In this document: positions 1 through 54,541 of the stretch, in pieces
Layout of the letters: every line of letters starts with the position of its first letter
How positions within the stretch are numbered: the first letter of the stretch is position 1
Source: an uncultured Alphaproteobacteria bacterium
Lineage (GTDB): Bacteria > Pseudomonadota > Alphaproteobacteria > HIMB59 > GCA-002718135
Reading direction: 5' to 3'
Length of the DNA stretch: 64,000 nucleotides
Assembly (NCBI GenBank): GCA_902614395.1
Contig: CACMKW010000002.1
Location: 3,356-67,355 of the forward strand
The notes under the pieces: generated by a model
What the model saw: only the letters and a program-made list of their open reading frames with translations
Told to the model about the DNA's origin: nothing
Database searches by the model: none
Program-made: the position numbers and the translations under genes

Positions 1-257
1 ATCCAGTTGAAGAATTTGTTTATTCTATTATGATGTGGTCATCTAAATCATTTAAAAAAAATTATAATAAATCTAAAGGATCTATCATTCATGGTAAATT
101 TAAAACTTTTGAGGTTTCACAATATTCTGGGTTAATTGTTAAAAATAAGTACGATTTAGAGGTCATTGAAAGTATTATTAAGAATAAAAATAAGAAAGTT
201 AATAAAGTTAAGTATGATAAATTAATAAAATCATTTAATGTACAAAATAAAAAATAA
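1..257 (+). CDS. 3' end of an unidentified CDS that begins upstream of the window
   Basis: The frame of the listed 30..257 ORF stays open back to base 3 (PVEEFVYSIMMW...), so the ATG at 30 is probably internal. Lys/Asn-rich tail with no motif I recognise. Confidence 0.3.
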   Translation, partial: PVEEFVYSIMMWSSKSFKKNYNKSKGSIIHGKFKTFEVSQYSGLIVKNKYDLEVIESIIKNKNKKVNKVKYDKLIKSFNVQNKK

Positions 258-3196: not shown

Positions 3197-3785
3197 TAAA
3201 TTTTTTTACGTTTTTATTAATTTTAATCTGAACAATTACTTACCTAAAGTTGCAATATATAATATTTATAAAATTCAAAACACTCAATATTCAAATTATG
3301 ACCCACAAAAAAATAAAAATCCTATCCTAAATTTAAATTCTTTTAATATTAATAAATTTATAAATGAATTAAATTTTAATATTACTAAAAAAAAACAATT
3401 TATAGATAATATAAACAATAATCTTAATTGTTGTGTAGTTTTGAATAAGAAAGATATAATTCATGAAAATTGGTTCTCTTTATCTTTAATTTCCAATAAA
3501 AATTTTGAAACGTGGTGTGATTTTATTAATTGGAAGTTAGAATCTACATGTGGCAATGCAAGAACTATTGAAATGTTTAAATCAAAAGGTTTTTACTCAG
3601 CAAGTTTATCTAAAATATTTAAATTTTTGATTTCAAAAGGAAAAATAAATACATATTTGTCAGTAAAAAAAAATAATAAAATAGGTAATTTATCTTTGAT
3701 AAAATTTAATCCATCAATTATAGGTATAGGTTATAAAATAAATTTTCTTTTTATTAAGATTTATTTTCTAAAAAAAATAATTTAA
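3174..3785 (+). CDS. Hypothetical protein (weak GNAT-like C-terminal motif)
   Basis: 203 aa ORF in operon context. Low-complexity Asn-rich N-terminal half. GNARTIEMFKSKGFY resembles the N..A...Y.K.GF end of acetyltransferase motif A/B, but this is weak. Confidence 0.4.
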   Translation: MDVLRLNNKFFYVFINFNLNNYLPKVAIYNIYKIQNTQYSNYDPQKNKNPILNLNSFNINKFINELNFNITKKKQFIDNINNNLNCCVVLNKKDIIHENWFSLSLISNKNFETWCDFINWKLESTCGNARTIEMFKSKGFYSASLSKIFKFLISKGKINTYLSVKKNNKIGNLSLIKFNPSIIGIGYKINFLFIKIYFLKKII

Positions 3786-3786
3786 A

Positions 3787-4827
3787 ATGAAAAAAATTAA
3801 GTATTCAGATCTTTTATCATTTTCAAAAAAAATTTTAATTAAATCAAATTTTGATAATAAATCTGCTAAAATTTTAGCTGAATGTCTATGTCAAACTTCA
3901 TTAAGGGGTGTAGACTCTCATGGCATCAGACTTTTAAATCATTATGTTAAGTCTACTATTGCAGGCAATAAAAATGCTAAACCAAAATTCAAAATTTACA
4001 AAAAATTCCCATCAGTTTCTTTACTAGATGCAGACAAAGGATTAGGTCACATAGCAGGATTTAAAGCAATAGAAATAGGTATTAAAGACTGTAAAAAATA
4101 TGGTCTGTCTATGGTTTCTGTTAAAAACTCAAAACATCCAGGCGCTTTAGCGAGTATAGCCATACCTGCTGCAAAAAAAGGATATGCGGTACTTGCTTTC
4201 ACTAATAGCGACTCTCTAATGCTTTCATTTAATGGTAAGAAAGCTCTTTTGGGCACAAACCCTATTTGTTTTGCTTGTCCAAATGGTGAAAATGAACCCT
4301 TTTGTCTTGACATGTCTACTACAACTTATACCTATAATAAATTACTTGTAATAAAAAAAAATAATAAAAAACTTCCTGATAACTTTGCAGCAGATAAAAA
4401 TGGAAATGTAACCTTAAATCCTAATATTGCTAAATCACTTCTTCCATTAGGAGGCTATAAAGGTTTTGGTTTGTCTATAATGGTTGAAATTTTAACAGCA
4501 GTGTTAGCAAATAGCTCTTTAGATTTTGAAATACCAGGAATGTATTCAAAATCAAAAAAGAAAAGGGATATATCACAAACTTACATAATTTTTAAAATTG
4601 AGTCTGTTACAACAAAAAACAAATTTATTAAAAGTTTAAAAAAATTATCTTCTAAAATTAGATCTGATAAAAAAGGAAAAAAGTCAGCAGTTATGCCTAA
4701 TGATCCAGAAAATAAATTTCTCAAAGAAAGAATCAAATACGGTATTCCTTTATCTAATGAAGTTTATAAAGATTTGATGATGTTATCAAAAAAAAATTCT
4801 GTGAAATTGATAGTTTATAATGGATGA
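3787..4827 (+). CDS. Ldh_2 family (malate/L-lactate/sulfolactate/diketogulonate-type) NAD(P)H oxidoreductase
   Basis: 346 aa. LRGVDSHGIRLLNHYV, the SKHPGALA segment and GTNPICFACP match my memory of the Ldh_2 (AllD/ComC/DlgD) family. Confidence 0.8.
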   Translation: MKKIKYSDLLSFSKKILIKSNFDNKSAKILAECLCQTSLRGVDSHGIRLLNHYVKSTIAGNKNAKPKFKIYKKFPSVSLLDADKGLGHIAGFKAIEIGIKDCKKYGLSMVSVKNSKHPGALASIAIPAAKKGYAVLAFTNSDSLMLSFNGKKALLGTNPICFACPNGENEPFCLDMSTTTYTYNKLLVIKKNNKKLPDNFAADKNGNVTLNPNIAKSLLPLGGYKGFGLSIMVEILTAVLANSSLDFEIPGMYSKSKKKRDISQTYIIFKIESVTTKNKFIKSLKKLSSKIRSDKKGKKSAVMPNDPENKFLKERIKYGIPLSNEVYKDLMMLSKKNSVKLIVYNG

Positions 4828-6565
4828 TATTATAGTTGTTGCAAACTTTGACGATGCAAATTTTATTTTAAAAAACTATTCAAATTCACAATATATATTA
4901 ACTTTAACACCTGATATTTATAACTATTTACAAAATAAAAATCTAAAACTGATTGATGTATTTAAAATTAATTATGATAAAATTCATTCTGAAACTATTC
5001 AAAAAACTTTTGTAATTGATAAGTTAATTGAAAAAAAATTAGCAGAGATAAAACTAAGACTTTCAACAAAAGAATATATAAAATTTCAAATCAATGTTTT
5101 CATGTCATCTTTTATTTATCTATCAACATTCATTAAAACTTATAAACAAATTACTATTATTGATGTGAATAAATTTAGAAAAATAAATAATATACATGAT
5201 GAAATTGAAATGATTTTTAATAAAATGTTAAAATTAAGAGGTTTTAGCTATTATTTTCCAACTCAGAGCTCCTATAAAAAAGCAAGTAATTATCTAATTA
5301 AATTAAATAATAATATTTTAAAATATTTTTTTTATAAAAAAAATATTATTTTTTCTTCTGGTGATGAATATGGAATGAATATCTTAAACAAAAAATTACT
5401 AAAGTGTAATAACAATTCACGAATAATCAAATTAGAAAGTTTAGATTCTAAATATTATCTAAAAATCATAATTAATTTATTAAAATTAATTTTCTTAAAA
5501 AAAAAATTTTCAGTATTTCCAATTAATGAATATCAAAAAAATTATATTAATGTAATTAACTCCATTTTTCTAGATTTACAAAATAATGAATTAAAATCTG
5601 CTAAAAATTTAATGATTCCAATATTAGTTGAAGGAGTAAATTATATTGAGAATAATACTAATTATTTTTCTATTTATTTTAGCAAAATCAATATTAATTT
5701 TTTTTTTGCTCATCAAATTAAAATGTCAAATTCATTAATTCTTGCTGAAATTGCAAAGTCAAAGAATGCGAAAACTTTTTTAATATCTCATGGAATACAT
5801 TCGTATTCTAAAAATGCAAATACTCACATCGCACTAAGTGCAAATGCAAGAGGTATGATTGTAAGTTCTCTAGCAAATTTTTCAATAATTCAATCAAAAA
5901 TTTCAAAAAAAGCATTTGATGCATATAACTCAAAAAATATTTCAATTAATTCCTTACCTTTAATGTGGGGAAACAAGAATATTAAAAAGGATAATTATAA
6001 CTTCATCGATAGACAAAAAAAAGTAATCCTCCACGCTAGTACCTTTAAATCATTTAATGTAAGACCATGGATATATGAGTCAACATTTGAGTATATTAAT
6101 GGTTTGAATAAACTAATATCAAAAATTAGAAATTTAAAAGACATTACATTGATAATTAGACTAAGACCAACATCGGAGTGTAGTTATGAAACTCTAGAAA
6201 ACTTAATATCAAAAAGTAGTAATGTATTTTTAAAAAAAGACGGTGATTTTATGGATGATCTTAAAAAAGCATCTTTACTAATAAGCTATTCTTCAACAAC
6301 AATTGAAGAAGCTCTACATGAAAGAGTGCCAGTAGCAATTTATGCAAACTCTATAAGATTTAATCATTTTGAGTGTATAAGTGAAGATATTGATAGTAAA
6401 AGATCAGCAGTTTATAATTTATCTGATCAAAATATGGAAAAAGAATTAAAAAAAATAATCAAGGATCATTTCAATAAACCTTTAACTGATGATGAATTAA
6501 AAAATTATATCTGGACTAAAGAAGACCTAGAACTAACATCTTATAACAAATTAAACTCTTTTTAA
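4820..6565 (+). CDS. Orphan 581-aa protein, C-terminal half resembles a GT-B / capsule-type glycosyl- or phospho-transferase
   Basis: No family motif recognised in the N-terminal half. The C-terminal half has an alternating beta-alpha pattern: KKVILHASTF ... ITLIIRLRPT ... ASLLISYSSTTIEEALHERVPVAIY, like the nucleotide-sugar-binding Rossmann half of TagF/KpsS/sialyltransferase-like enzymes. Confidence 0.5.
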   Translation: MDDIIVVANFDDANFILKNYSNSQYILTLTPDIYNYLQNKNLKLIDVFKINYDKIHSETIQKTFVIDKLIEKKLAEIKLRLSTKEYIKFQINVFMSSFIYLSTFIKTYKQITIIDVNKFRKINNIHDEIEMIFNKMLKLRGFSYYFPTQSSYKKASNYLIKLNNNILKYFFYKKNIIFSSGDEYGMNILNKKLLKCNNNSRIIKLESLDSKYYLKIIINLLKLIFLKKKFSVFPINEYQKNYINVINSIFLDLQNNELKSAKNLMIPILVEGVNYIENNTNYFSIYFSKININFFFAHQIKMSNSLILAEIAKSKNAKTFLISHGIHSYSKNANTHIALSANARGMIVSSLANFSIIQSKISKKAFDAYNSKNISINSLPLMWGNKNIKKDNYNFIDRQKKVILHASTFKSFNVRPWIYESTFEYINGLNKLISKIRNLKDITLIIRLRPTSECSYETLENLISKSSNVFLKKDGDFMDDLKKASLLISYSSTTIEEALHERVPVAIYANSIRFNHFECISEDIDSKRSAVYNLSDQNMEKELKKIIKDHFNKPLTDDELKNYIWTKEDLELTSYNKLNSF

Positions 6566-8316
6566 TGATATTCATAAATAATGTCTCTAAATTTGAAGAA
6601 AATTTAAATGATAAGAAATTTGCCTATCTCTATTCTGAAGATACAAAAAATGATTTGAAAATTGATAATATCAAAAATAAATTAATTCATATAAATCTTA
6701 ATTATGAAATCAACTTTAATGAAATAAGTATCTTTAATAATTATTTTTCAACTATTTCTAAAATAAATAATAATTTTCTTTATTGGTCTTCTGAATTAAG
6801 TTCAAAAAATCGATTTACAACAAAAATATCTCAAAATTTTTTTAAACACTATTTCTTGGTTAAAGAGCTCTTAAAAATTAAAGAAAGCAATATTCTAATT
6901 TTAACTGATGATTATAATATAATACAGACTATAACTTTGAATTTTGAAGACAGATTTATATTTAACGAAAATAAATTTAATTTGAAAAAATATCTAAAAG
7001 AAAAAACAAAGTATTTTTTAAAATTTAAAAAAATATTTTCAGAATTAATATTATTGGCAAATTTAATATTTAAATCAATTATCTCAAGAATTATTTTGAA
7101 TAGAATTGATTTTAAAAATAAATCTTATTTAATTAAAACACACACTTACTATAATCAAATAAATAAATTAAATGTGACTGATATTTTTTTTGGTGACCTA
7201 GAAAAAAATTTTAATAAAAGTTATTTCAAGTTAGCACATTTCCAAAATGATTATTTCAAAACACTTAAATTTATAAGTAAAAATAAATATAATATTTATC
7301 CATTTGAATATTTTATTAGCACATATCAGTTATTATATTTATTTATAAAAAAATATTTCTTTAAGATTAAAATTTTTGAATCTATAAAAAATACAATTAA
7401 GCTTGATCATATATTTATTCATGAAATTCAAAAATCAGGAATTTCACTCAATCATTTATCTTTTTATATCGTTGCAAAAAATTTGTCTAAGATCACAAAT
7501 ATTGAAAAATTATATTTAACTTATGAAAACATTGCATGGGAAAATTCTTTTATCTTTGGTCTTAAAAAATTTATGCCAAACATAAAAATTGTAGGTTATC
7601 AACATACTGTTGTTCCTCAAGCTTCTGTTGGAATGTTTATTAGCTCTCAAGATAATAAAGTAAAACCATTGCCTGATTTAATTTTGACTAATGGATCTGT
7701 GACAAAAAAGATAATAAACCAATATTCTAAATATCCAACTGGATTGGTAGATTCGTCATGCGCTCTTAGATTTAATAATCATTACCATTACTCACTTAAA
7801 AGAAAAAAAATATCAAATATTTTAGTAGTTCTTGAAGGCATTCCAGAAGTGTATAAATTAGTTAATTATATATTAAATTTCTCATTGAATAAAAACTTTA
7901 ATATTACTATCCGCACTCATCCTGTTTTACCTTGGAAAGTGATAAAAAAATTACTTAATTTATCTTCTACGTCTGATAACATTATCATATCTGAAAATAA
8001 ATCACTTCATCATGATTTTAAAAGATCAGATATTTGTATTTATTGGGGAAGCGCAGTATGTTTGGATGCTATAAAATATGGATTGCCAGTTGTGCATTTT
8101 GATGAGGGTAAATACTTAAGTTATGATCCATTGTTTGAATTAAATCAATTCAAATGGATAATTAAACGTACTAATGATCTTGAAATTATTATAAAAAAAA
8201 TCGATAACTTAAAAGCTTCTGAATTTGAAAATAAAAGAAAAAACGCTCAAGATTATGTAGATAAATATTTACATTCTATTAATCAAGAAGATATAAATAA
8301 ATTTTTAATAAAATGA
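6565..8316 (+). CDS. Orphan 583-aa protein, same architecture as the preceding gene (distant paralog, GT-B-like C-terminal half)
   Basis: ILVVLEGIPE ... NITIRTHPVLPW ... SDICIYWGSAVCLDAIKYGLPVVHF parallels the upstream protein segment by segment. Its start overlaps the upstream stop (ATGA-type junction). Confidence 0.5.
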   Translation: MIFINNVSKFEENLNDKKFAYLYSEDTKNDLKIDNIKNKLIHINLNYEINFNEISIFNNYFSTISKINNNFLYWSSELSSKNRFTTKISQNFFKHYFLVKELLKIKESNILILTDDYNIIQTITLNFEDRFIFNENKFNLKKYLKEKTKYFLKFKKIFSELILLANLIFKSIISRIILNRIDFKNKSYLIKTHTYYNQINKLNVTDIFFGDLEKNFNKSYFKLAHFQNDYFKTLKFISKNKYNIYPFEYFISTYQLLYLFIKKYFFKIKIFESIKNTIKLDHIFIHEIQKSGISLNHLSFYIVAKNLSKITNIEKLYLTYENIAWENSFIFGLKKFMPNIKIVGYQHTVVPQASVGMFISSQDNKVKPLPDLILTNGSVTKKIINQYSKYPTGLVDSSCALRFNNHYHYSLKRKKISNILVVLEGIPEVYKLVNYILNFSLNKNFNITIRTHPVLPWKVIKKLLNLSSTSDNIIISENKSLHHDFKRSDICIYWGSAVCLDAIKYGLPVVHFDEGKYLSYDPLFELNQFKWIIKRTNDLEIIIKKIDNLKASEFENKRKNAQDYVDKYLHSINQEDINKFLIK

Positions 8317-9308
8317 AAAGATATAAATGCGCCATTATTGGTTACGGATATATGGGGAAAATCCGTCATAATGTAGTTAATAAAATTCCAAAACTTGATC
8401 TAAAATATATCATTGATGAAAATATAAATATTATTCCAAATAGCTATAAATACATAAAACTTAATAGTTATAAAGAATTAGACTTTGATAAGATTGATAT
8501 AATTTTTGTGTGTACCCCAAATAACATAAGTCCACTAATTATAAAAAAGGCATTAAAGTTTAATAAAAAAATTTTTTGTGAAAAACCTCCTGCAAGAAAT
8601 TTAAGAGATGTTGCAAATATAAGAAAATTAAAAAATTCCTCAACAAATTTAATGTTTGGTTTTAATCATCGCTTTCATCCAGCTATTGAAAAAGCAAAAA
8701 AACTTATTGACTCTAAAAAATTTGGTAAAGTTATTTCTCTTAGAGGTGTTTATGGTAAATCAGGTGGTATAAATTTTAAAAAATCATGGAGAAATAATAT
8801 TAAAATTTCAGGTGGCGGTATTCTTTTAGATCAAGGAATACATATGATAGATATCTTTAGGTTTTTCTGTGGTAATTTTGAAAAGATAAAATCCTTTCAA
8901 TCAAATATTTTTTGGAAATTTGATATTGAAGATAATGCATTTTTGATTTTAAAAAATAAAAATAATCAATTAGCAAGCTTGCATTCTTCATCGACATTAT
9001 GGAGACACACATTTAGAATAGATGTAACTTTGGAAAAAGGTTATTTTCTAGTTGAGGGTCTATTATCTAAAACAGGAAGTTATGGGCAAGAAAAAATTAC
9101 ATATGCACCTAGACAATTTGAAAATATTTCAAAAGCAATTGGTAACCCAACTGAAACAGTGGTTTACTATGATACTGATAATTCATGGCTTAACGAAGTA
9201 AAAGCTTTTTTAAAATTTATTGAAAATAAATCAAAAATTAAAATAAATAATATTGATGATGCTTATTCTGCTATGCAAATAGTAGATAAAGCATATAAGC
9301 AGGATTAA
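8313..9308 (+). CDS. Gfo/Idh/MocA family NAD(P)-dependent oxidoreductase
   Basis: N-terminal Rossmann CAIIGYGYMGKIRH and the family EKP motif (IFCEKPPA). 331 aa. Confidence 0.8.
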   Translation: MKRYKCAIIGYGYMGKIRHNVVNKIPKLDLKYIIDENINIIPNSYKYIKLNSYKELDFDKIDIIFVCTPNNISPLIIKKALKFNKKIFCEKPPARNLRDVANIRKLKNSSTNLMFGFNHRFHPAIEKAKKLIDSKKFGKVISLRGVYGKSGGINFKKSWRNNIKISGGGILLDQGIHMIDIFRFFCGNFEKIKSFQSNIFWKFDIEDNAFLILKNKNNQLASLHSSSTLWRHTFRIDVTLEKGYFLVEGLLSKTGSYGQEKITYAPRQFENISKAIGNPTETVVYYDTDNSWLNEVKAFLKFIENKSKIKINNIDDAYSAMQIVDKAYKQD

Positions 9309-9310
9309 TT

Positions 9311-9922
9311 ATGAAAAAAAAATATGTTGAAAGATATTTGGAGGAAGTTGCAAAAATTGCCAAAACAATTGACAAAAATAAAATTAATAAAGTTATAAAC
9401 AGATTAGTTAAACTAAGAAAAGAAAATGGAAGAGTTTTTTTTATTGGTGTTGGGGGCAGTGCTTCTAATTGCTCTCATGCTGTAAATGATTTTAGAAAGA
9501 TAGCTCAAATAGAATCTTACACACCTGTTGATAATGTTGCAGAATTAACAGCAAGGACAAATGATGAGGGTTGGGATACTGTGTTTTCAGCTTGGTTAGA
9601 GAGAAGTAGAGTTAATAAAAAAGATTTATTATTTGTTTTAAGTGTTGGTGGTGGTAATATTAAAAAAAATGTTAGTGTGAATTTAATTCATGCTATTAAT
9701 TATTCAATTAAGAAAAGATGTGATGTAGCTGGTATAATAGGTAGAGATGGTGGTTACGTTAATAAGAAAAGTAATTTATGTATACTTGTACCCTCCCAAT
9801 CAAACGATACAATTACTCCTCTTGCAGAATCTTGGCAATCTATAGTTTGGCATTTAATAGTTAGCGATCCAAGAATAATTAAATATTCTAATAAATGGGA
9901 ATTTCTTGATAAAATGAAATAA
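9311..9922 (+). CDS. SIS-domain sugar-phosphate isomerase (GmhA/phosphoheptose isomerase-like)
   Basis: GRVFFIGVGGSASNCSHAVNDFRK matches the GmhA-type G.GGS...A.H pattern. About 200 aa, typical for single-SIS isomerases. Confidence 0.75.
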   Translation: MKKKYVERYLEEVAKIAKTIDKNKINKVINRLVKLRKENGRVFFIGVGGSASNCSHAVNDFRKIAQIESYTPVDNVAELTARTNDEGWDTVFSAWLERSRVNKKDLLFVLSVGGGNIKKNVSVNLIHAINYSIKKRCDVAGIIGRDGGYVNKKSNLCILVPSQSNDTITPLAESWQSIVWHLIVSDPRIIKYSNKWEFLDKMK

Positions 9923-10674
9923 TGTTACTTTTAAAAAGGATTTTAAATAAAATAAAAAAAATCAATAAAAAACTTAAGAGAGTTTTCACTAATAAAATTT
10001 ATTACAATAATAGCTCTTTTAAACTGAGAGCAAATAACTGGATAACAAAATATAGATTTGATACATTTGAAAATAAAGAACCAGAAACTCTTAAATGGAT
10101 AGATAATAATTTAAGAGAAAATGATGTTTTTTTTGATGTAGGAGCAAATATTGGAATTTATTCTTTATATGCTGCCTCAAAAAAATTTAATAATTCTAAA
10201 ATTTATAGTTTTGAGCCAGAATATTCTAATTTAAATGAATTGAAGTTTAATGTTTTAAACAATGGTTTTACAAATAACATAAATATTTTTTCAATTGCTT
10301 TTGGGGAATTTAGCCATCTTTCTTTTTTGCAGATAAATGATATAACTCCCGGTGCAGCATTACACTATTTAAGTAATTCTAATGCTCCTTTATCTAGTAT
10401 TTCCGAGGGAGTTTTTGTGATGAAAATTGATGAGTTTTGTAATCAGCAAAATATTTTTCCTAATCTTATTAAAGTAGATATAGATGGAAATGAGGATAAA
10501 TTTTTAAATGGAGCTACAAATTTGCTTAAAAATAAAAATTTAAGATCGATAATAATTGAACTTGATGATAAACAAAACAGAGACAAATGTATCAGTATAA
10601 TTAAAAAAAATGGGTTTGATTTAATTGATAATTATAAAAGTAACCAATCTTTTATTTTTTCTAAAAAGAAATGA
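9922..10674 (+). CDS. FkbM family methyltransferase
   Basis: FFDVGANIGIYSLYAA (motif I), FEPE, and LIKVDIDGNEDKFLNG, typical of FkbM-type O-methyltransferases. Confidence 0.8.
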   Translation: MLLLKRILNKIKKINKKLKRVFTNKIYYNNSSFKLRANNWITKYRFDTFENKEPETLKWIDNNLRENDVFFDVGANIGIYSLYAASKKFNNSKIYSFEPEYSNLNELKFNVLNNGFTNNINIFSIAFGEFSHLSFLQINDITPGAALHYLSNSNAPLSSISEGVFVMKIDEFCNQQNIFPNLIKVDIDGNEDKFLNGATNLLKNKNLRSIIIELDDKQNRDKCISIIKKNGFDLIDNYKSNQSFIFSKKK

Positions 10675-10736
10675 ATTTAACAAACAATATAAAAAATGTT
10701 TAGATTAATTTATCCATAAGTTGTAATACCTATATT

Positions 10737-11495
10737 ATGAAATTAAATAATAAATTTAAAAATTTAAATAAAATCTATGGAGGTTGGTTATCCATAAACA
10801 ATTTTCAACTATGTGATATTTTATCTAACATGCAAATTGATTTTTTAGGTGTTGATTTGGAGCATACTCCTACTTCAATAGATCAATTTTTAAAATTTGT
10901 AACTATTTGTCATTCAAAAAAAATTAGTTGTTTGCCAAGAATTCCTGATTTAGATAATGCATTAATAAAGAGATTATTAGATTCAGGAGCAGATGGTGTT
11001 ATAGCTCCAAGTATAGAAAATGTTGAACAGATTGAATTTTTAGAAAATTCAATTTTTTATCCTCCTAATGGCTCCAGAGGATATGGAGTATCCAAAGCTT
11101 CTAATTATGGCTTAGCTTTTAATAAATATGTAAAAAATTGGAATAAAAATGCCGTATTAATTATTCAGATTGAATCTATTAAAGCTATAAAAAACTTGGA
11201 GTCTTTAATATCAAAAAAATGTGTGAGTGGAGTAATGATTGGACCTTATGATATTTCAGGTTCTTTAGGTATTCCAGGAGAATTAAGTCACCCAGAGGTA
11301 CTGAATGCTTGTAAAGAAATATTATCAATCTGCAAGAAATATAAAAAATCATGTGGAATACATGATACTGATCCAAATTCTAAGTCTTTAAAATTGCTAG
11401 ATAAAAATGGATATAATTTCATTGTTATTGGTTCAGATATTTTTTTATTAACCAAATGGGTTAATAGCATGAACAAACTATTAAATGAAAAGTGA
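10737..11495 (+). CDS. HpcH/HpaI family class II (pyruvate-dependent) aldolase
   Basis: 252 aa. LGVDLEHTP, IQIESIKAIKNLESL and MIGPYDISGSLG correspond to the metal/pyruvate-binding segments of HpaI/GarL/RhmA-type 2-keto-3-deoxy-acid aldolases. Confidence 0.8.
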   Translation: MKLNNKFKNLNKIYGGWLSINNFQLCDILSNMQIDFLGVDLEHTPTSIDQFLKFVTICHSKKISCLPRIPDLDNALIKRLLDSGADGVIAPSIENVEQIEFLENSIFYPPNGSRGYGVSKASNYGLAFNKYVKNWNKNAVLIIQIESIKAIKNLESLISKKCVSGVMIGPYDISGSLGIPGELSHPEVLNACKEILSICKKYKKSCGIHDTDPNSKSLKLLDKNGYNFIVIGSDIFLLTKWVNSMNKLLNEK

Positions 11496-12271
11496 ATAAA
11501 AACAACTATATAAAAAACTATTTTGATTTTTCTAATAAAACAGTTGTAATCACAGGAGGTTCTGGACATCTTTGTGGTGAGATGGCAACAACTTTTCTTA
11601 AACTTGGATCAACAGTATTTATATTAGATAAAAATATAAAAAAAATAGACAAAAAAAAATTTATAATTTTTAGAAATAAGATATTTTTTAAGAAAATTGA
11701 TTTAATTAATAAAAGTCAAATTAAAACTTCTCTAAAGTATATTTTAAATAAATCTAATAAGATTGATATTTTAATTAATGGAGCTGGAGCAAATTCCCCA
11801 AAAAGTTTTTTTGATATTACTGAAAAAGATTGGCAATTCGTAATTGATAGCCAACTAAAATCAACATTTTTATCTTGTCAAATTTTTGGTAAACAAATGA
11901 TAAAGCAAAAACATGGCAGTATATTAAATATAAGCTCAGCTTCTGCAGGCCCTCCATTATCAAAAGCATTTGCGTATTCTGCTGCAAAATCTGGAATAAA
12001 AAATTTAACACAAAATTTAGCTAGAGAGTGGGCTACTAAAGGTGTAAGAGTAAATGCTTTAAGGCCAGGTTTCTTTCCAACACGATGGAGTATGGAAAAT
12101 TTTATTGATAAACAAAGAAAAGAAAAAATTTTTCAACATACGCCTATGAAAAGATTTGGAAATCCGAAAGAATTGATCACCGCAGTATTGTTTATTTGTT
12201 CAGATAAATCAACTTTTCTTACTGGTAGTGAGATTGCTGTTGACGGAGGATTTGGAGCTATGACTATATGA
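11492..12271 (+). CDS. SDR family oxidoreductase
   Basis: VVITGGSGHLCGEMA cofactor motif, NGAG, catalytic YSAAKSG. GTG start in a GTGA overlap with the upstream stop. Confidence 0.85.
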   Translation: MNKNNYIKNYFDFSNKTVVITGGSGHLCGEMATTFLKLGSTVFILDKNIKKIDKKKFIIFRNKIFFKKIDLINKSQIKTSLKYILNKSNKIDILINGAGANSPKSFFDITEKDWQFVIDSQLKSTFLSCQIFGKQMIKQKHGSILNISSASAGPPLSKAFAYSAAKSGIKNLTQNLAREWATKGVRVNALRPGFFPTRWSMENFIDKQRKEKIFQHTPMKRFGNPKELITAVLFICSDKSTFLTGSEIAVDGGFGAMTI

Positions 12272-13023
12272 ATCAAGATAAAAGAGTAGTTTTGATAACT
12301 GGAGGATCTTCGGGAATTGGTTTCGAGATAGCTATTAAATATTTTGAAAATGATTGGAATGTTGTAATTTTAGGAAGAAAAAAATATAATTATTTTCCAA
12401 AATCAAAAAAATTTAAATTTGTAAAAGGCGATGTAATCAGTGAGAATTCTCATTTATTAACTGCAAAATCAGCTATTAAATTTTTTAACAGACTTGATTG
12501 TTATATAAATTGCGCAGGTATTTCTGAGTGGAAATCTATAGATAACGTAAATAGAAAATTTTGGGATAAAATAATTAATACTAATCTTTTAGGTACTATG
12601 TGGGGATGCAAAACTGCCTCAAATTTTCTTTCTAAAAATGGGTCAATTATTAACATTTCAAGTATTGCTGGGAAAAGAGGAAGTGCAAACAATTCTGTCT
12701 ATTGCGCATCTAAATTTGGAGTAAATGGAATAACGCAATCATTATCTAAAGAATTGGGTATAAAAAAAATAAGAGTTAATTCTGTTTGCCCTGTATATAT
12801 TAAAACAAAAGGTCTTGAAAACGCATTGAGACATAAAGTTTCTCCAACCAATGGTAAAAAAATCGATTCGTATTTAGAAAAATTTATAAGACAAAATTCA
12901 TCTCTTAAAAGTTTACCAACTAGTGAAGATGTCGCAAATTTTTGTTATTTCTTATCATCAGATAAAGCTAAATCAATTACCGGACAATGTTTAAATATTG
13001 ACTCCGGCGTCTTTCCTCAATGA
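12268..13023 (+). CDS. SDR family oxidoreductase (classical, FabG-like)
   Basis: VVLITGGSSGIGFE, NCAG, catalytic YCASKFG. 4-nt overlap with the upstream gene. Confidence 0.85.
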   Translation: MNQDKRVVLITGGSSGIGFEIAIKYFENDWNVVILGRKKYNYFPKSKKFKFVKGDVISENSHLLTAKSAIKFFNRLDCYINCAGISEWKSIDNVNRKFWDKIINTNLLGTMWGCKTASNFLSKNGSIINISSIAGKRGSANNSVYCASKFGVNGITQSLSKELGIKKIRVNSVCPVYIKTKGLENALRHKVSPTNGKKIDSYLEKFIRQNSSLKSLPTSEDVANFCYFLSSDKAKSITGQCLNIDSGVFPQ

Positions 13024-13793
13024 AGAAAGAAAAAATAGTAGCTATAATTCCATCAAGAATGGCATCAACTAGATTACCTGGAAAGCCATTATTGAAAATT
13101 TATAACTTAGAATTAATAGAGCACGTAAGAAGAAGAGCCTTGTTAAGTAAATTTTTTGATGAAGTATATGTTGCCACTTGTGATAGGGAAATTGCAAGTA
13201 TCGTTAAACAAAATAATGGTAAGGTAATCATGACATCAGACAAACATTTTGATTGCAATGAAAGAATATTAGAGGCTTCAAAAAAAATTAATGCAAAATT
13301 TATTGTAAATGTTCAGGGTGATGAAATACTAGTTCATCCTAAAAACTTAGATATGATATGCAAAACAATTGTAAAAGATAAGAAATCTATGTATTGGAAT
13401 GCGATTTCTAAAATAGAAGACAAAAAAGATTTAATAAACGATACAGTAGTTAAATGTTATATTTCAAAAAATAAAAATATATTATTCTGCTCAAGAAAAG
13501 AGGAAATTATAAAAAGAATAGATCCAAATATTCCAATTATGAAATTATTAGGACTTCAAGCTTTTAAAAAATCAGCTTTAAAAATTTATTCTAAGAACAA
13601 CATTACACCGTTAGAGAAAAATTTTTCAATTGGTCAAATGAGAATTTTAGAAAATAATCATAATTTAAAGTCTATTAATATAAAAAATGGATATAGGGGG
13701 ATTGATAAAAAAAGAGATATAATATATGCTAAAAACATATTAACTAGAGATAAAGAGCAAATAAAGATTTTAAATAAAATTATAAATCATTAA
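13020..13793 (+). CDS. KdsB-like cytidylyltransferase (CMP-3-deoxy-ulosonate synthetase family)
   Basis: IVAIIPSRMASTRLPGKPL and VNVQGDE closely follow the KdsB signature (IIPAR.ASTRLPGKPL / NVQGDEP), not the NeuA one. Confidence 0.8.
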   Translation: MKKEKIVAIIPSRMASTRLPGKPLLKIYNLELIEHVRRRALLSKFFDEVYVATCDREIASIVKQNNGKVIMTSDKHFDCNERILEASKKINAKFIVNVQGDEILVHPKNLDMICKTIVKDKKSMYWNAISKIEDKKDLINDTVVKCYISKNKNILFCSRKEEIIKRIDPNIPIMKLLGLQAFKKSALKIYSKNNITPLEKNFSIGQMRILENNHNLKSINIKNGYRGIDKKRDIIYAKNILTRDKEQIKILNKIINH

Positions 13794-13813
13794 TAAAATA
13801 AAATAAGTATTTT

Positions 13814-14494
13814 ATGGCAATTTTTTTAGACACAGGGAAAGTAGACGAAATCAAAAAGTACCATGATTATGGTATAATAAGAGGTGTGACTACCAATCCT
13901 TCTATACTAATAAAAGAGGGATTAGGAACAAATTTACAAGAATTAAAAAAAAAATTTATTGAAATTGCTGATTTGATAAATCCGCTTCCTTTATCTTTAG
14001 AAGTTACTTCAAATGAAACTTCTGAAATGTTTGAACAAGCAGAATTATTTGCAGGATGGGCTGATAATATTAACGTAAAAATCACAATTCACGGTCCTAA
14101 TGGTGAATTGAATAATTTAAAAGTTATAAATCAATTAGAAAACAAAAAAAATATCAGAGTAAATGTTACCGCTATGATGAGTGCACAGCAATGTTATCTT
14201 GCAGCTCAAGCTGGTGCAACTTATGTGTCTATTTTTGGAGGTAGAATTAATAATATGGGTTATGATTCAAATAAGGAAATATATATTTTAAGAAATTTAT
14301 TGGATAAATTTAATCTTAATTCTAAAATTATAGTTGGTTCTACTAGAGAAATTATTAATATAACTCAATGGCTAAATGCAGGTGCACATATAGTAACTTG
14401 TCATCCTAATTTTCTAGAGGGAATGCTGATCCATCCATATACAAAAGAAACTGTACAAATGTTTCTAAATGATGGAAATAAAATTAAAAAATAA
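13814..14494 (+). CDS. Short (type 3B) transaldolase / fructose-6-phosphate aldolase family protein
   Basis: 226 aa. FLDTG ... GVTTNPSIL N-terminus, the Schiff-base lysine region NVKIT, and the size fit FSA/TalC-type enzymes. Confidence 0.85.
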   Translation: MAIFLDTGKVDEIKKYHDYGIIRGVTTNPSILIKEGLGTNLQELKKKFIEIADLINPLPLSLEVTSNETSEMFEQAELFAGWADNINVKITIHGPNGELNNLKVINQLENKKNIRVNVTAMMSAQQCYLAAQAGATYVSIFGGRINNMGYDSNKEIYILRNLLDKFNLNSKIIVGSTREIINITQWLNAGAHIVTCHPNFLEGMLIHPYTKETVQMFLNDGNKIKK

Positions 14495-15436: not shown

Positions 15437-16122
15437 AACTAAGTATAGTAATACCATGCTTTAATGAAGAAAATACAATTATAGATATATTAAAGCTAGT
15501 TAAAAAAAATCCTTATAAAGATATTGAAATTATAGTAGTGGATGATTTTTCTAAGGATAACACAAGGAAGATCCTCTCAGAAAATCGACAATATTATGAT
15601 GTCTTAGAATTACACGATCAAAATAGAGGTAAAGGTTCAGCTATAAGGACAGGTTTAAATAGAGTTTCTGGAGAAATAGTTTTAATTCAAGACGCAGATT
15701 TAGAATACGATCCTAACGAATATCTAGATCTATTGGGGCCAATTTTAAACAATAAAGCCGATGTTGTTTATGGATCAAGATTTCAGGGAGGTAAACCACA
15801 TAGAATTTTATATTTTTGGCATACTATAGGAAATAAATTTCTTACATTATTCTCAAATATGTTTACAAATTTGAATTTAACGGACATGGAATGCTGTTAT
15901 AAAGTATTTAGATCAGACATAATAAAAAAAATTAAATTAAAAGAAAATAGATTTGGTTTTGAACCTGAAGTTACAGCTAAAATAGCTAAGTTGAATTGCA
16001 GAATATATGAGGTTGGAGTTTCTTACTATGGCAGGACTTATAAAGAGGGTAAAAAAATAGGATGGAAAGATGGTATAAGTGCAATTATTTGTATAATTAA
16101 ATATGGAATATTTAGTAAATAA
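15433..16122 (+). CDS. GT2 polyprenyl-phosphate glycosyltransferase (DPM1/ArnC-like)
   Basis: LSIVIPCFNEE, VVDDFSKDNT, QDADLEYDP and GSRF are characteristic of the lipid-phosphate sugar synthase subgroup of GT2. Confidence 0.8.
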   Translation: MKLSIVIPCFNEENTIIDILKLVKKNPYKDIEIIVVDDFSKDNTRKILSENRQYYDVLELHDQNRGKGSAIRTGLNRVSGEIVLIQDADLEYDPNEYLDLLGPILNNKADVVYGSRFQGGKPHRILYFWHTIGNKFLTLFSNMFTNLNLTDMECCYKVFRSDIIKKIKLKENRFGFEPEVTAKIAKLNCRIYEVGVSYYGRTYKEGKKIGWKDGISAIICIIKYGIFSK

Positions 16123-17677
16123 AAAATTTTTTACACTTTTTTTTATACTAATTATGTTTTTCTTAATTTATTTTTTTCAAAATACAACAAACTATACAAA
16201 TTTTAAATTAAATTGGGATGAAGTAGATTATGCAAATGTAGCTTCTAAAGGAATAATAAATAATTATATTGATAGAGATAGTATAAGTTTTAAGACTTTT
16301 ACAGCAATTGGATTATCAAAATTTAAAAATAAAGAAGTATTTGTAGATAAAAATTTAACAGTATTAGAACATAATGATAATTTTAACTTAAGACATTTTC
16401 ATCCACCACTTCCAGTTTATTATTGGTCAATATTCACAAATGATAAAAATACTAATGAAATAAATGCTAGAAATCTTAGATTTAGTAATTTACTTTTATA
16501 CTTTGTTATATTTGTTTTTTTTACAATTTTTATTCATCTAAATTCTATAAATATAAAAAATTATTTTCTATCAACAAGTCTTTTATTTTTTTACTTAACT
16601 AATATTAATGTAATCGAATCATTTTTAAATTTACATTTTCATAATTTTTTTTCAATTATTTTTTTTTATCATATTTATTCAGTCATAATATATTTTAATG
16701 AAAAAAATGATGTATACTCAAGAGCAAATTTTACTTTTTCTATTTCACTTTTAATAATCACATTGGAAACATTTCCTATTGTATTAATAACAACAATTTT
16801 AATTTATTTATTATTTCCAATTAAGAATAAGAAAAAAATAAATTTATTTGAATTGATTAAAAATTTTGTTACTGCAATATTTATTGCTATAATTTTATTC
16901 CCATCCTCAATTGTTAAACTTACTTACCTAAAAACTTTTTTAATGTATTTTTATAGAATTTTTGCAAAAAATAATGAGGAATATAGTGAGATTAATTATT
17001 TGGATAATTGGAAAAATTTTTTCTTTGATAATCTTCTTGTTTTATTGGTAATAATTTTTGTTCTATCATTTTATCTTCTTAGAAATAAAATTGATAAAAA
17101 ATACTTAATATACTTCTTTTATATATTTGCTTACTCAATAATTATGACACCATTTATTTTATCATATACATATGTTTTTCCAGTTATTTTTATTTTTATT
17201 TGTTTAACCATCCAAATAATTAATAAAACAAAATTAAACAGTTATGAATTTGTATTATTATTATCTATTTTTGCGATTACAATATCTATAAATATTTTAG
17301 CAATTAATAGTAAAAATTATTACACTAACTTTCAGCTTTATAATAATAAAATTGATACTATTATTTCTGAATATTTAATTGATAAAAAAAATAAAAATAT
17401 ACTAATAGATGGCGCTCATATCTTTAATTATTATTCTGAAAATACGAATTTTATAAATCTAAATATAATGTCTTTAAGTAATCCTAGTTTTTATATAAGA
17501 AAAAATTACAAAAACATAAAAATTAATGAAAAAATTAAAAATAATTATTTTGATATGATTATTATTCAATCAAACAGAAGTTATACTGATGAAAAGATCA
17601 AGTTTCTTTATGACAGTGGTTACAAATCATTAGATAATTATGAAGGATATAATATATATAAATTAGATAATGGATAA
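16103..17677 (+). CDS. Polytopic membrane protein, probable GT-C glycosyltransferase (PMT/ArnT-like)
   Basis: 524 aa with 10 or more hydrophobic segments. The first loop after TM1 carries WDEVDYANV, resembling the DE(V)HF acidic motif of PMT/ArnT enzymes. The soluble C-terminal domain and the position directly after a lipid-P-sugar synthase also fit. Confidence 0.55.
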   Translation: MEYLVNKKFFTLFFILIMFFLIYFFQNTTNYTNFKLNWDEVDYANVASKGIINNYIDRDSISFKTFTAIGLSKFKNKEVFVDKNLTVLEHNDNFNLRHFHPPLPVYYWSIFTNDKNTNEINARNLRFSNLLLYFVIFVFFTIFIHLNSINIKNYFLSTSLLFFYLTNINVIESFLNLHFHNFFSIIFFYHIYSVIIYFNEKNDVYSRANFTFSISLLIITLETFPIVLITTILIYLLFPIKNKKKINLFELIKNFVTAIFIAIILFPSSIVKLTYLKTFLMYFYRIFAKNNEEYSEINYLDNWKNFFFDNLLVLLVIIFVLSFYLLRNKIDKKYLIYFFYIFAYSIIMTPFILSYTYVFPVIFIFICLTIQIINKTKLNSYEFVLLLSIFAITISINILAINSKNYYTNFQLYNNKIDTIISEYLIDKKNKNILIDGAHIFNYYSENTNFINLNIMSLSNPSFYIRKNYKNIKINEKIKNNYFDMIIIQSNRSYTDEKIKFLYDSGYKSLDNYEGYNIYKLDNG

Positions 17678-18503: not shown

Positions 18504-18535
18504 ATTGTTTGATTAGTAGAATAAATTTTAATTAA

Positions 18536-31077: not shown

Positions 31078-31088
31078 TATTATTAATT

Positions 31089-46420: not shown

Positions 46421-46469
46421 TTAATCACAAATAAGTTGACCAATGAAAATATTTAAGTTTAAATAAATT

Positions 46470-51245: not shown

Positions 51246-51246
51246 T

Positions 51247-51582: not shown

Positions 51583-51585
51583 AAC

Positions 51586-53328: not shown

Positions 53329-53329
53329 C

Positions 53330-54493: not shown

Positions 54494-54541
54494 TTTAATA
54501 TTTGTATTCTAATATAATTTATAATTCTATTACAAAATATA

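Follow-up and report, generated by a model that had tools for sequence, protein, structure and literature searches.

A widespread gene cassette that may use a pyruvate aldolase to build a CMP-activated ulosonic acid

In the known pathways to Kdo and to sialic acid-like sugars, it is KdsA or NeuB that forms the 2-keto-3-deoxy acid, and both do so with PEP. A glycan locus need not carry its own synthase: the kps loci for the group 2 capsules of Escherichia coli have kpsF and kpsU but no kdsA, and draw on the housekeeping kdsA. Two further bodies of work bear on the genes described here. In lincomycin biosynthesis, a transaldolase and a GmhA-like isomerase build octose-8-P (PMC5854111, PMC12945683). 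Aldolases of the HpcH family take polyhydroxylated aldehydes such as glyceraldehyde and erythrose, their stereocontrol at the new carbinol centre is loose, and some of them accept hydroxypyruvate (PMC7610986).

Our subject is a cassette in a surface-glycan island of a 64-kb stretch of DNA from a SAR11-type (Pelagibacteraceae) marine bacterium, the whole of which we call the window. The cassette most likely makes a CMP-activated, Kdo/sialic acid-like sugar, and we found no published description of it in the literature. That a pyruvate aldolase replaces the PEP-dependent synthase is plausible, at slightly under even odds (about 0.45).

Genes and predicted enzymes

ORF calling gave eight co-directional genes between 8313 and 14494, all on the forward strand. 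The initial annotation had counted nine; a ninth, at 6565–8316 on the same strand, lies outside that interval and is translationally coupled to the first of the eight by a 4-nt overlap. The junctions within the interval measure, in order, +2, −1, +62, −4, −4, −4 and +20 nt, and the gap from the last gene to its downstream neighbour is 0 nt. Family assignment by Pfam and NCBIfam profile searches agreed with every earlier domain call, with one change of subtype, in the transaldolase. An Ldh_2-family 2-hydroxyacid dehydrogenase is encoded 3.5 kb upstream in the window.

The aldolase (10737–11495, forward strand) is an HpcH/HpaI-family, class II, metal-dependent 2-oxoacid aldolase by Pfam (HpcH_HpaI, 95 bits), as first proposed. 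As the proposed skeleton-forming enzyme it would join pyruvate to an aldose or an aldose phosphate. In NCBIfam it scores best against HpaI, GarL and RhmA, though far short of the equivalog cut-off of each, and its best PDB matches are GarL (1DXE), HpaI (7ET8) and YfaU (2VWS). Five residues, H43, R68, Q144, E146 and D172, are invariant across 42 family members; we take them to be H45, R70, Q147, E149 and D175 of E. coli HpaI. The class II pyruvate-aldolase catalytic set is complete; an additional basic residue that would point to a phosphate site is not conserved in the family.

Two genes could supply the aldehyde. The protein of 13814–14494 (forward strand; Pfam TAL_FSA) was first called an FSA/short transaldolase. 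Its closest PDB match is a Thermoplasma transaldolase. Where TacTal has E60 and F132 it likewise has Glu and Phe, and both the Schiff-base Lys and the phosphate-binding residues (R135, S167 and R169) are present. Across 35 orthologues there is conservation of D6, E60, K86, T110, F132, R135, S167 and R169. On these residues we rejected the FSA identity, and we call the enzyme a short (TalC/TacTal-type) transaldolase. The isomerase (9311–9922, forward strand; Pfam SIS_2) remains the GmhA-like SIS protein of the initial annotation, a putative ketose-phosphate/aldose-phosphate isomerase, by matches that are all weak: only GmhA models respond in NCBIfam (33–51 bits against cut-offs above 200), and the PDB matches are to phosphoheptose isomerases only. 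Its motifs show strong conservation across 33 orthologues, and H, D, E and H fill the Zn/catalytic positions of GmhA. Together, the two genes parallel LmbR/LmbN of the lincomycin pathway.

At the other end of the pathway stands the KdsB-like cytidylyltransferase (13020–13793, forward strand), a call upheld by Pfam (CTP_transf_3, 130 bits) and by a best NCBIfam model within the KdsB subfamily (PRK13368, 198 bits against a cut-off of 255, which one orthologue passes at 269 bits). Its closest PDB match is KpsU (1GQ9). The catalytic residues are intact, and the enzyme retains the nucleotide loop, QGDEP and the C-terminal Asp; where KpsU has H181 the family has Q, and where KpsU has E210 the family has D but the window's protein G.

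The remaining four enzymes, whose assignments all match Pfam and NCBIfam, look like a tailoring set. The Gfo/Idh/MocA protein (8313–9308, forward strand; N- and C-terminal Pfam domains) is predicted to be an NAD(P)-dependent sugar dehydrogenase for a redox step, with its catalytic residues in place: 26 orthologues share the EKP and D-x-x-x-H motifs. SDR 1 (11492–12271, forward strand; Pfam adh_short), a classical SDR, is most similar to sugar-acid dehydrogenases, its NCBIfam scores being 239 bits for D-mannonate oxidoreductase (PRK08277), 179 for gluconate 5-dehydrogenase and 162 for KduD, all below cut-off. SDR 2 (12268–13023, forward strand), a generic classical SDR in Pfam and NCBIfam, may pair with SDR 1 in an oxidation/reduction that epimerises the sugar. 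The FkbM-family methyltransferase (9922–10674, forward strand; Methyltransf_21, TIGR01444) probably adds an O-methyl group; elsewhere it is replaced by other methyltransferases, either a 335-aa class I-like protein or, in one locus (L048), a NanM-like protein.

The ninth gene encodes a protein of 583 aa that matches no Pfam family. Its AlphaFold2 model (pLDDT 89, pTM 0.89) retrieves GT-B enzymes with Foldseek, among them TagF, WaaA and NeuC, as generic matches only (TM about 0.5 to the target). Its R-x-H-P ('HP') motif (R450, H452 and the P after it), which varies little or not at all among 44 homologues, is of the type seen in CMP-sugar (sialyl/nonulosonyl) transferases. The protein has a weak NCBIfam match to TIGR04326, and its Marinimicrobia orthologue also matches the BFO_1060 family, the Tannerella Pse/Leg transferase family (PMC5420450). 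Fold and motif make it a probable candidate for a transferase that uses a CMP-activated sugar. The protein of 581 aa encoded just before it (4820–6565, forward strand) is possibly a second GT-B-like transferase, though its membership is uncertain: it weakly resembles the C-terminal half of its 583-aa neighbour (pairwise E = 9e-5), it has a sub-threshold match to DUF6716 ('putative glycosyltransferase'), and its orthologues adjoin the cassette in two loci (L001 and L023).

Conservation across metagenomic loci

Metagenomes hold at least 519 relatives of the aldolase. Dozens of independent metagenomic loci carry these genes in the same order, with amino-acid identities of 35–95%, and for that reason the association is far from chance. 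We sampled 18 non-redundant related loci of at least 15 kb each. The aldolase, both SDRs and the cytidylyltransferase are in all 18, every time as a contiguous block in which SDR 2 separates SDR 1 from the cytidylyltransferase; the SIS isomerase and the Gfo protein are each in 17, the transaldolase and a HAD phosphatase each in 14, and an orthologue of the GT-B protein in 12. The FkbM methyltransferase, in 7 of the 18, is a variable accessory. The commonest order (SIS, transaldolase, aldolase, HAD, SDR, SDR, cytidylyltransferase) can be read as a pathway, one that parallels KdsD-KdsA-KdsC-KdsB. Relatives with names belong to Marinimicrobia, Bacteroidota, Omnitrophota and Thermodesulfobacteriota.

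Like glycan islands in general, this one is a mosaic, with a dTDP-rhamnose set and several glycosyltransferases and methyltransferases besides the cassette. It could be argued that two or more unrelated products are made here by genes that happen to travel together, such as a heptose from the transaldolase and isomerase, a small hydroxy-acid substituent from the aldolase and SDRs, and a CMP-Kdo linker from the cytidylyltransferase. The coming and going of accessory genes among loci (FkbM, HAD, a PGDH-like dehydrogenase and the 335-aa gene) would suit such a patchwork, but we think it improbable: the core stays contiguous and ordered across 35–68% sequence divergence and several phyla, overlaps of 4 nt couple the aldolase gene through SDR 1 and SDR 2 to the cytidylyltransferase gene, and the cassette is without a heptose kinase or heptose nucleotidyltransferase. 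The KdsB-family enzyme is the sole nucleotidyltransferase of the conserved cassette, which argues for a single product. The evidence supports a single conserved biosynthetic cassette.

Immediate neighbours of the aldolase gene were counted in 81 non-redundant loci, in which the upstream side could be read in 70 (11 end at a contig edge) and the downstream side in 66 (15 end at a contig edge). The transaldolase gene lies immediately upstream in 24 of the 70, and a HAD phosphatase gene immediately downstream in 36 of the 66, an adjacency that resembles the synthase–phosphatase pairs of the Kdo and Kdn pathways. Within the long loci, the HAD gene co-varies with the PGDH-like and 335-aa genes, so the phosphatase may be part of a decoration sub-module and not an analogue of KdsC. 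The window's cassette, unlike most of its relatives, has no HAD gene after the aldolase, and it has no PGDH-like gene.

These accessories lend some colour to a different nucleophile, with the aldolase using hydroxypyruvate or a substituted 2-oxoacid to give a 3-hydroxy (Ko-like) or 3-substituted 2-ulosonic acid. Most canonical loci add the PGDH-like 2-hydroxyacid dehydrogenase (211 bits to PGDH) and HAD, which together could yield hydroxypyruvate from 3-phosphoglycerate; the window has its Ldh_2-family enzyme; and hydroxypyruvate is a known substrate in the HpcH family (PMC7610986), PDB 6R62, a 'hydroxyketoacid aldolase', being among the aldolase's matches. We nevertheless regard this as a long shot, given that PGDH-like and HAD genes are both missing from the window's cassette and that the aldolase scores higher against the pyruvate-specific GarL, HpaI and YfaU (98–108 bits) than against the hydroxypyruvate aldolase (67 bits).

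KdsA, the aldolase and a proposed route

The statement that the window holds no PEP-dependent synthase was confirmed: no DAHP_synth_1/KdsA or NeuB domain occurs among its scanned ORFs of at least 100 aa, and tblastn with KdsA and NeuB sequences found no match in the 64 kb. The kps precedent makes the absence of kdsA from a locus weak evidence, and a presumed housekeeping kdsA almost certainly lies elsewhere in the genome, outside the window. Moreover, in 8 of 85 loci (about 10%), a Kdo8P synthase and a KdsD-type CBS pair sit directly upstream of the orthologous aldolase; the synthase of one (L048) passes its equivalog cut-off (327 bits against 242). The aldolase thus cannot be read as a plain replacement for KdsA in every locus, and in these loci the ulosonic acid could come from KdsA while the aldolase does something else.

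A modified-Kdo pathway would accommodate this. KdsA, housekeeping in the window's genome and cluster-encoded in the related clade, would make Kdo-8-P, with the SIS protein as analogue of KpsF (arabinose-5-P isomerase) and the cytidylyltransferase as analogue of KpsU; the aldolase (e.g. by C4 inversion through retro-aldol/aldol), the SDR pair, the Gfo protein and the methyltransferase would then remodel it to an epimeric or methylated Kdo before CMP is added. The KdsB-subfamily cytidylyltransferases, including the PRK13368-passing orthologue in L044, are consistent with it, as are the kps-like gene content and the loose stereocontrol of the aldolases. We consider it unlikely, if the most serious of the alternatives. 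It leaves no role for the transaldolase, whose gene is better conserved than any other in the cassette (60–79% identity across phyla); the SIS protein matches GmhA-type models only, not KdsD/KpsF-type; and we know of no retro-aldol epimerase of the kind needed. The KdsA-linked loci form one derived, monophyletic clade of the aldolase family, without transaldolase, so KdsA may be an add-on there for a Kdo linker.

The aldolase route would begin with the transaldolase making or topping up a ketose phosphate, most likely sedoheptulose-7-P and possibly octulose-8-P, which the GmhA-like isomerase would convert to the aldose phosphate. The aldolase would then join pyruvate to that aldehyde to give the 2-keto-3-deoxy acid, and the phosphate would come off, a step for which most relatives have HAD and the window's version has none. 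SDRs, Gfo and FkbM enzymes would tailor the sugar by epimerisation via keto intermediates and O-methylation; the KdsB-family enzyme would join it to CMP; and the GT-B protein would move it onto the glycan. The chain length of the product would depend on what the isomerase makes: C8 from arabinose-5-P, C10 from heptose-7-P and C11 from octose-8-P, with C8 or C10 favoured.

Of the self-contained route first proposed, much stands: the conserved cassette, the KdsB enzyme, the intact aldolase and the LmbR/LmbN precedent favour it, as does a GT-B partner that carries an HP motif and is remotely linked to the family of nonulosonic-acid transferases known from Tannerella. KdsA beside the aldolase in one clade, the missing HAD, the lack of an extra basic residue for phosphate in the aldolase family, the weak GmhA match and some loci (L047, L049 and L069) without a transaldolase within 10 kb count against it. 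At the same somewhat-below-even odds, then, ten genes at 4820–14494, with a core at 6565–14494, make one CMP-activated, probably O-methylated 3-deoxy-2-ulosonic acid and transfer it to a surface glycan, as one version of a widespread, uncharacterised cassette.

The cassette and its genomic setting

Eight co-directional genes occupy positions 8313–14494 of the window, with junctions of +2, −1, +62, −4, −4, −4 and +20 nt and a further gene following at 0 nt. The initial annotation had counted nine genes here; ORF calling gives eight, and its picture of a co-directional, tightly packed array stands. In order, Pfam and NCBIfam assign the products to Gfo/Idh/MocA (8313–9308), SIS_2 (9311–9922), FkbM (9922–10674), HpcH_HpaI (10737–11495), two classical SDRs (SDR 1, 11492–12271; SDR 2, 12268–13023), CTP_transf_3 (13020–13793) and TAL_FSA (13814–14494). 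These matches agree with every domain first proposed; the last protein, first named as an FSA/short transaldolase, is a transaldolase rather than an FSA. None of the eight window proteins reaches the curated NCBIfam cut-off of any characterised equivalog. SDR 1 comes nearest to D-mannonate oxidoreductase, gluconate 5-dehydrogenase and KduD in NCBIfam, and the Gfo protein retains its EKP and D-x-x-x-H motifs. We include in the cassette a ninth gene, an ORF at 6565–8316 whose last 4 nt lie within the Gfo gene and which encodes a 583-aa protein belonging to no Pfam family.

The cassette lies within a low-GC (18–28%) surface-glycan island, at 1–37779, which holds glycosyltransferases, an rmlABCD set, methyltransferases, an AsnB-like amidotransferase, an EpsG/Wzy-like protein and a UDP-sugar dehydrogenase. 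The flank, from 38 to 64 kb, has a GC content of 28–35%, carries osmolyte and one-carbon metabolism genes, and encodes proteins that cluster at ≥90% identity with proteins named 'Pelagibacteraceae bacterium'. The HVR2 region of SAR11 is low in GC and consists mostly of surface polysaccharide genes (bioRxiv 10.64898/2026.04.03.716430). By its low GC, its surface-glycan content and its Pelagibacteraceae-like flank, the island resembles HVR2 and looks like a SAR11 hypervariable region of that type. Three blocks of the flank, at 40530–41669 (−), 44783–47942 (+) and 50124–55771 (−), encode a gamma-butyrobetaine-hydroxylase-like dioxygenase, a GMC (choline-dehydrogenase-like) oxidoreductase, two aldehyde dehydrogenases, two GcvT-like aminomethyltransferases and a homocysteine S-methyltransferase; such genes are typical of SAR11 osmolyte and methyl-group metabolism.

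Several of the cassette's neighbours in the island deserve description in their own right. Five co-directional genes lie 5′ of it (238–4827, + strand), encoding a HisC-like class I/II aminotransferase, an FAD oxidase like L-2-hydroxyglutarate or glycerol-3-P oxidase, a class I methyltransferase, a 203-aa familyless protein and an Ldh_2-family 2-hydroxyacid dehydrogenase. By analogy, these could furnish an amino-alcohol phosphate or hydroxy-acid substituent, for example serinol phosphate, an idea that stems from Campylobacter capsule chemistry. On the other side, in the stretch of lowest GC (18–19%), two ORFs of 500–524 aa (16103–17677 and 18536–20038, both +) have no family match and 8–11 hydrophobic segments each, and are probably membrane proteins of the island of polymerase, flippase or ligase type. 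A glutamine-dependent asparagine-synthase (AsnB) homologue, which could amidate a sugar carboxylate, stands a few genes 3′ of the cassette in the window (24715–26685, +) and in two metagenomic loci that carry relatives of the aldolase, L001 (14367–16337) and the Marinimicrobia locus L002 (17420–19381). Further on (30187–34382, +) is a dTDP-rhamnose set of RmlD-like, RmlC, RmlB, a second RmlD and RmlA; the presence of two RmlD-like reductases points to another 6-deoxyhexose besides rhamnose.

Enzymes encoded by the cassette

The aldolase (10737–11495) matches the Pfam HpcH_HpaI domain at 95 bits and has the features of a class II pyruvate aldolase: Glu and Asp as metal ligands, a pyruvate-binding Arg, and an active-site His and Gln. 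Five residues, H43, R68, Q144, E146 and D172, do not vary across 42 sequences, and we equate them with the catalytic His, Arg, Gln, Glu and Asp of class II pyruvate aldolases like HpaI. Among known structures, those of GarL, HpaI and YfaU come closest. The cassette aldolase has its fold family and full catalytic residue set in common with GarL, YfaU/RhmA and HpaI, yet it falls far under the NCBIfam equivalog cut-offs (HpaI, 141 versus 369 bits; GarL, 130 versus 407; RhmA, 110 versus 441), and its own family has a distinct group of invariant residues in Y124, G125, F128, Y131 and W135. The known enzymes reversibly link pyruvate with hydroxy-aldehydes in degradation pathways, whereas the cassette family is found in biosynthetic glycan loci. 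Addition of pyruvate to polyhydroxy-aldehydes by HpcH-family enzymes has been described (PMC7610986).

The protein at 13814–14494 aligns with Thermoplasma transaldolase, with the equivalents of D6, E60, K86, T110, F132, R135, S167 and R169 all present. A Schiff-base Lys, a Glu as acid/base and a phosphate-binding Arg, Ser, Arg set mark it as the short TalC/TacTal type; the eight residues are conserved among 35 orthologues, the Glu in 34 of them and the Phe in 30. At the E60 and F132 positions we would expect Gln and Tyr in an FSA, and the Glu and Phe found there rule that assignment out. The SIS protein (9311–9922) is harder to place, scoring 33 bits to SIS_2 and matching GmhA models alone, weakly (34–51 bits versus cut-offs of 209–320). 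It has H, D, E, H at the Zn/catalytic positions where GmhA has His, Glu, Gln, His, and its phosphate loop carries a six-residue insertion.

A dedicated transaldolase paired with a GmhA-like isomerase in a sugar cluster recalls the LmbR/LmbN pair of lincomycin biosynthesis, which we compare with the cassette from published descriptions; there, a transaldolase and a GmhA-like isomerase domain make octulose-8-P and then octose-8-P (PMC5854111, PMC12945683). In the lincomycin pathway, a kinase, a phosphatase and a guanylyltransferase take the octose phosphate on to GDP-octose; the cassette has an aldolase and a CMP-transferase instead. The downstream anomeric kinase, phosphatase and NDP-transferase (LmbP, LmbK, LmbO) have no counterpart in the cassette, which has no kinase or NTP_transferase-type gene.

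The cytidylyltransferase (13020–13793) matches CTP_transf_3 in Pfam at 130 bits and falls below the cut-off of every KdsB model: 198 versus 255 for the best, PRK13368, 188 versus 193 for NF003952 and 107 versus 155 for TIGR00466. Its orthologue in the metagenomic locus L044 passes PRK13368 at 269 bits. The PseF model gives 34 bits only. The closest structure is the capsule enzyme KpsU (1GQ9), and the alignment to it shows IPSRxxSxRLPGKPL, QGDE and GID; the nucleotide-binding loop, the QGDEP metal motif and the C-terminal Asp are kept here and in 33 orthologues. Two positions differ. H181 and E210 of KpsU/KdsB, which in role and numbering we presume to be the Kdo-contacting residues, are replaced, the first by Q throughout the family and the second by D in most members and by G in the window. 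Taken as a whole, the protein is a putative CMP-activating enzyme of the KdsB family.

The 583-aa protein (6565–8316) has 44 homologues, all 'hypothetical'. An AlphaFold2 model built with them is confident (pLDDT 89), and the matches returned by Foldseek are all GT-B enzymes (glycosyltransferases, TagF, WaaA, NeuC), all generic, with TM scores of about 0.5 to the target. NeuC was the top match, but we discarded a NeuC-like hydrolysing epimerase, the other GT-B matches being equally generic and an Epimerase_2 match in Pfam being absent. The family has a consensus IRTHPVLP, in which R450 and H452 are invariant; of a D/E-D/E-G motif there is only 'LEG' (L423, E424, G425), nearly invariant. The consensus contains the 'HP' motif, a mark of CMP-donor binding shared by bacterial sialyltransferases and the Pse/Leg transferases of Tannerella (PMC5420450). 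The latter, the Tanf_01245/BFO_1060 family of Tannerella forsythia, are GT-B/TagB-like and carry the HP motif, and their donors are derivatives of CMP-Pse or CMP-Leg (PMC5420450); the 583-aa protein is about 140 residues longer and passes the cut-off of no Pfam or NCBIfam family. It matches TIGR04326 weakly (38 bits, cut-off 250). Its Marinimicrobia orthologue weakly matches the BFO_1060 family (32 bits), and the BFO_1060 model gives no match to the window protein itself. We infer that it is the transferase for the cassette's CMP-sugar.

Related loci and the search for a synthase

The aldolase has at least 500 database relatives at E ≤ 1e-10, and a metagenome scan confirmed at least 519 relatives, from which 80 loci were kept. 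Synteny is retained in L001, including both genes of ~580 aa, where the aldolase is 69% identical; in L006 it is 94% identical, and the same gene set is present on Marinimicrobia contigs at an aldolase identity of just 45%. We ran tblastn with the window proteins against all loci and tallied presence in the 18 non-redundant loci of at least 15 kb. The aldolase, both SDRs and the cytidylyltransferase are found in all 18, the SIS and Gfo proteins in 17, a PGDH-like 2-hydroxyacid dehydrogenase in 15, and the transaldolase, an HAD phosphatase and a 335-aa methyltransferase-like (MT-like) protein in 14 each; 12 of the 18 have an orthologue of the 583-aa protein. The transaldolase is the cassette's best-conserved member (60–79% identity), with named orthologues in Marinimicrobia, Mariniphaga (Bacteroidota) and Omnitrophica MAGs; those of the 583-aa protein are in Thermodesulfobacteriota and Smithella MAGs. 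A scan of genome contigs with the aldolase gave no cultured named carrier, its one hit being an unrelated Clostridia locus at 33% identity, and tblastn with the transaldolase against 72,556 plasmids gave no match.

The commonest gene order is GT-B, Gfo, MT-like, SIS, transaldolase, aldolase, HAD, SDR, SDR, cytidylyltransferase, 2-hydroxyacid dehydrogenase, an arrangement in which SIS and transaldolase are adjacent; transaldolase and GmhA-like isomerase occur together in the window and in 14 of the 18 long loci. Immediate neighbours were counted over 81 non-redundant loci, with the gene upstream of the aldolase readable in 70 (11 cut at a contig end) and that downstream in 66 (15 cut): a transaldolase lies immediately 5′ in 24/70 and an HAD immediately 3′ in 36/66. 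A SAR11-type variant, represented by the window, L001, L006 and L023, dispenses with the MT-like, HAD and 2-hydroxyacid dehydrogenase genes, has FkbM in their stead, and places the transaldolase 3′ of the cytidylyltransferase. These three accessory genes, encoding the 335-aa methyltransferase-like protein, an HAD_2 phosphatase and a phosphoglycerate-dehydrogenase-like enzyme, tend to come and go jointly; in L044 they lie at 7645–8655, 10771–11406 and 17675–18598, and equivalents occur in 14–15 of the 18 long loci. They may form a sub-module, for instance for hydroxypyruvate or glycerate chemistry. A hydroxypyruvate variant of the pathway as a whole strikes us as improbable. Since its presence tracks that of the PGDH-like and MT-like genes, the HAD is possibly part of a decoration module. 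The window's variant of the cassette contains no phosphatase gene, and a 203-aa ORF at 3174–3785, considered as the missing HAD, was set aside, since it resembles neither the cassette HAD nor any chain in the PDB. Both the missing phosphatase and the possible decoration role of the HAD weigh against the pathway proposed below.

The window was initially said to lack a PEP-dependent synthase, and this is borne out: the ORFs of at least 100 aa that we scanned contain no DAHP_synth_1/KdsA or NeuB domain, and tblastn with KdsA and NeuB queries found nothing in the 64 kb. The KdsA probe works, since the same tblastn found KdsA in other loci. In eight of these (L048, L066, L039, L040, L074, L055, L072 and L058) a KdsA homologue stands directly 5′ of the aldolase. 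That of L048 is a genuine Kdo8P synthase, at 327 bits versus a cut-off of 242. There, at 8691–9967, the synthase and then a stand-alone CBS pair, which matches the C-terminal half of KdsD/KpsF, precede the aldolase, and a NanM-like sugar O-methyltransferase takes the HAD's usual place 3′ of the aldolase. The aldolases of the KdsA-linked loci form one clade, from which the transaldolase is absent, and in this clade a ulosonic acid from KdsA may be remodelled by the aldolase.

Could the cassette at large then make a modified Kdo? The eight KdsA-linked loci speak for it, and so does a capsule precedent. Region 1 of the E. coli group 2 capsule (kps) loci has its own sugar-phosphate isomerase and KdsB paralogue, kpsF and kpsU, and no kdsA, so a locus may depend on the housekeeping kdsA; KpsU is, moreover, the best PDB match of the window cytidylyltransferase. 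Unlike the cassette, the kps loci do without an aldolase, a transaldolase, an SDR pair and a Gfo gene; their isomerase KpsF combines SIS and CBS, and their Kdo transferases are KpsC and KpsS rather than members of the 583-aa family. A modified Kdo would leave the transaldolase, the best-conserved gene of all, without a role, and we think this explanation somewhat unlikely.

A candidate pathway and its meaning

To our knowledge, all known pathways to CMP-activated ulosonic acids (Kdo, Neu5Ac, Kdn, Leg, Pse and relatives) use a PEP-dependent synthase of the KdsA/NeuB type. The Kdo pathway, with KdsD (SIS isomerase), KdsA (PEP-dependent synthase), KdsC (HAD phosphatase) and KdsB (CMP-Kdo synthetase), has the step logic of the cassette, and its order of sugar-phosphate isomerase, C3-adding C–C bond enzyme, HAD phosphatase and KdsB-family cytidylyltransferase is that of most related loci; the closest matches of the cassette cytidylyltransferase are KpsU and KdsB. 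The two differ in that the window has an HpcH class II pyruvate aldolase where DAHP_synth_1/KdsA would be, the cassette isomerase is GmhA-type (SIS_2) rather than KdsD-type SIS + CBS, the HAD of related loci is of the HAD_2/phosphoglycolate-phosphatase rather than the KdsC type, and the cassette adds a transaldolase, two SDRs, a Gfo protein and a methyltransferase. The nonulosonic acid pathways (Neu5Ac, Leg, Pse, Kdn) use a NeuB-family synthase and a NeuA/LegF/PseF cytidylyltransferase, joined in Leg clusters by PtmA (SDR) and PtmF (oxidoreductase). They resemble the cassette in their CMP-activated sugar and HP-motif GT-B transferases, and in Leg clusters SDR, Gfo/Idh/MocA-annotated oxidoreductase and CTP_transf_3 genes adjoin (PMC4481668). 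In contrast, the cassette has no NeuB-type synthase and no UDP/GDP-GlcNAc dehydratase, aminotransferase or acetyltransferase steps, and its cytidylyltransferase is KdsB-like.

Set against KdsD-KdsA-KdsC-KdsB, the sequence of isomerase, (transaldolase), aldolase, phosphatase, SDR, SDR and cytidylyltransferase runs in parallel, and the aldolase falls where KdsA stands. That parallel, the pyruvate addition of HpcH enzymes and the LmbR/LmbN module together give what we regard as the best reading, namely that the aldolase acts as the synthase; we put its probability at about 0.45, and every step is one that we infer. A ketose phosphate, most likely sedoheptulose-7-P, would be isomerised to an aldose phosphate, which would be condensed with pyruvate and the product dephosphorylated; the SDR pair, Gfo and the methyltransferase would then tailor the sugar before its activation with CMP and its transfer by the HP-motif GT-B enzyme. 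As the cassette has a single activating enzyme, we take a single product to be the simplest case; a mosaic reading we hold to be a long shot. The predicted product may have a chain length of C8, C10 or C11; neither the altered cytidylyltransferase positions nor the invariant residues peculiar to the aldolase family pointed decisively to one substrate size. In its boldest form, the proposal is that two successive PEP-free C3 additions (transaldolase and GmhA-like isomerase giving heptose-7-P or octose-8-P, then pyruvate from the class II aldolase) would lead to a C10 or C11 3-deoxy-2-ulosonic acid. O-methylated and CMP-activated, this 'deculosonic' acid would be displayed at the surface of abundant uncultured bacteria, SAR11 and Marinimicrobia among them. 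We consider this unlikely.

Full-text literature searches, including for higher ulosonic acids, found no published description of this combination of genes. The finding belongs to a known kind, CMP-ulosonic acid biosynthesis, and the new biosynthetic logic is a real, though unproven, potential. In Magnetospirillum, mass spectrometry has recently picked up CMP-activated ulosonic acids beyond C9, reported as being of unknown origin (bioRxiv 10.64898/2026.04.20.719630); these are diamino sugars without a link to the cassette, and they show that the chemical space exists.

If our reading is true, the biosynthetic logic would be a different one, a class II pyruvate aldolase fed by a transaldolase–isomerase front end, probably yielding a new acidic methylated sugar as well, in carriers that are very abundant. 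The C10/C11 version would give a biosynthetic logic for the ulosonic acids beyond C9 that are starting to be detected by mass spectrometry (bioRxiv 10.64898/2026.04.20.719630). The unannotated GT-B family, of ~600 residues, is a candidate new family of CMP-sugar transferases. The cassette recurs in MAGs of Marinimicrobia, Bacteroidota, Omnitrophota and Thermodesulfobacteriota, and in the window it sits in a hypervariable surface-glycan island of the kind thought to set phage-receptor diversity.
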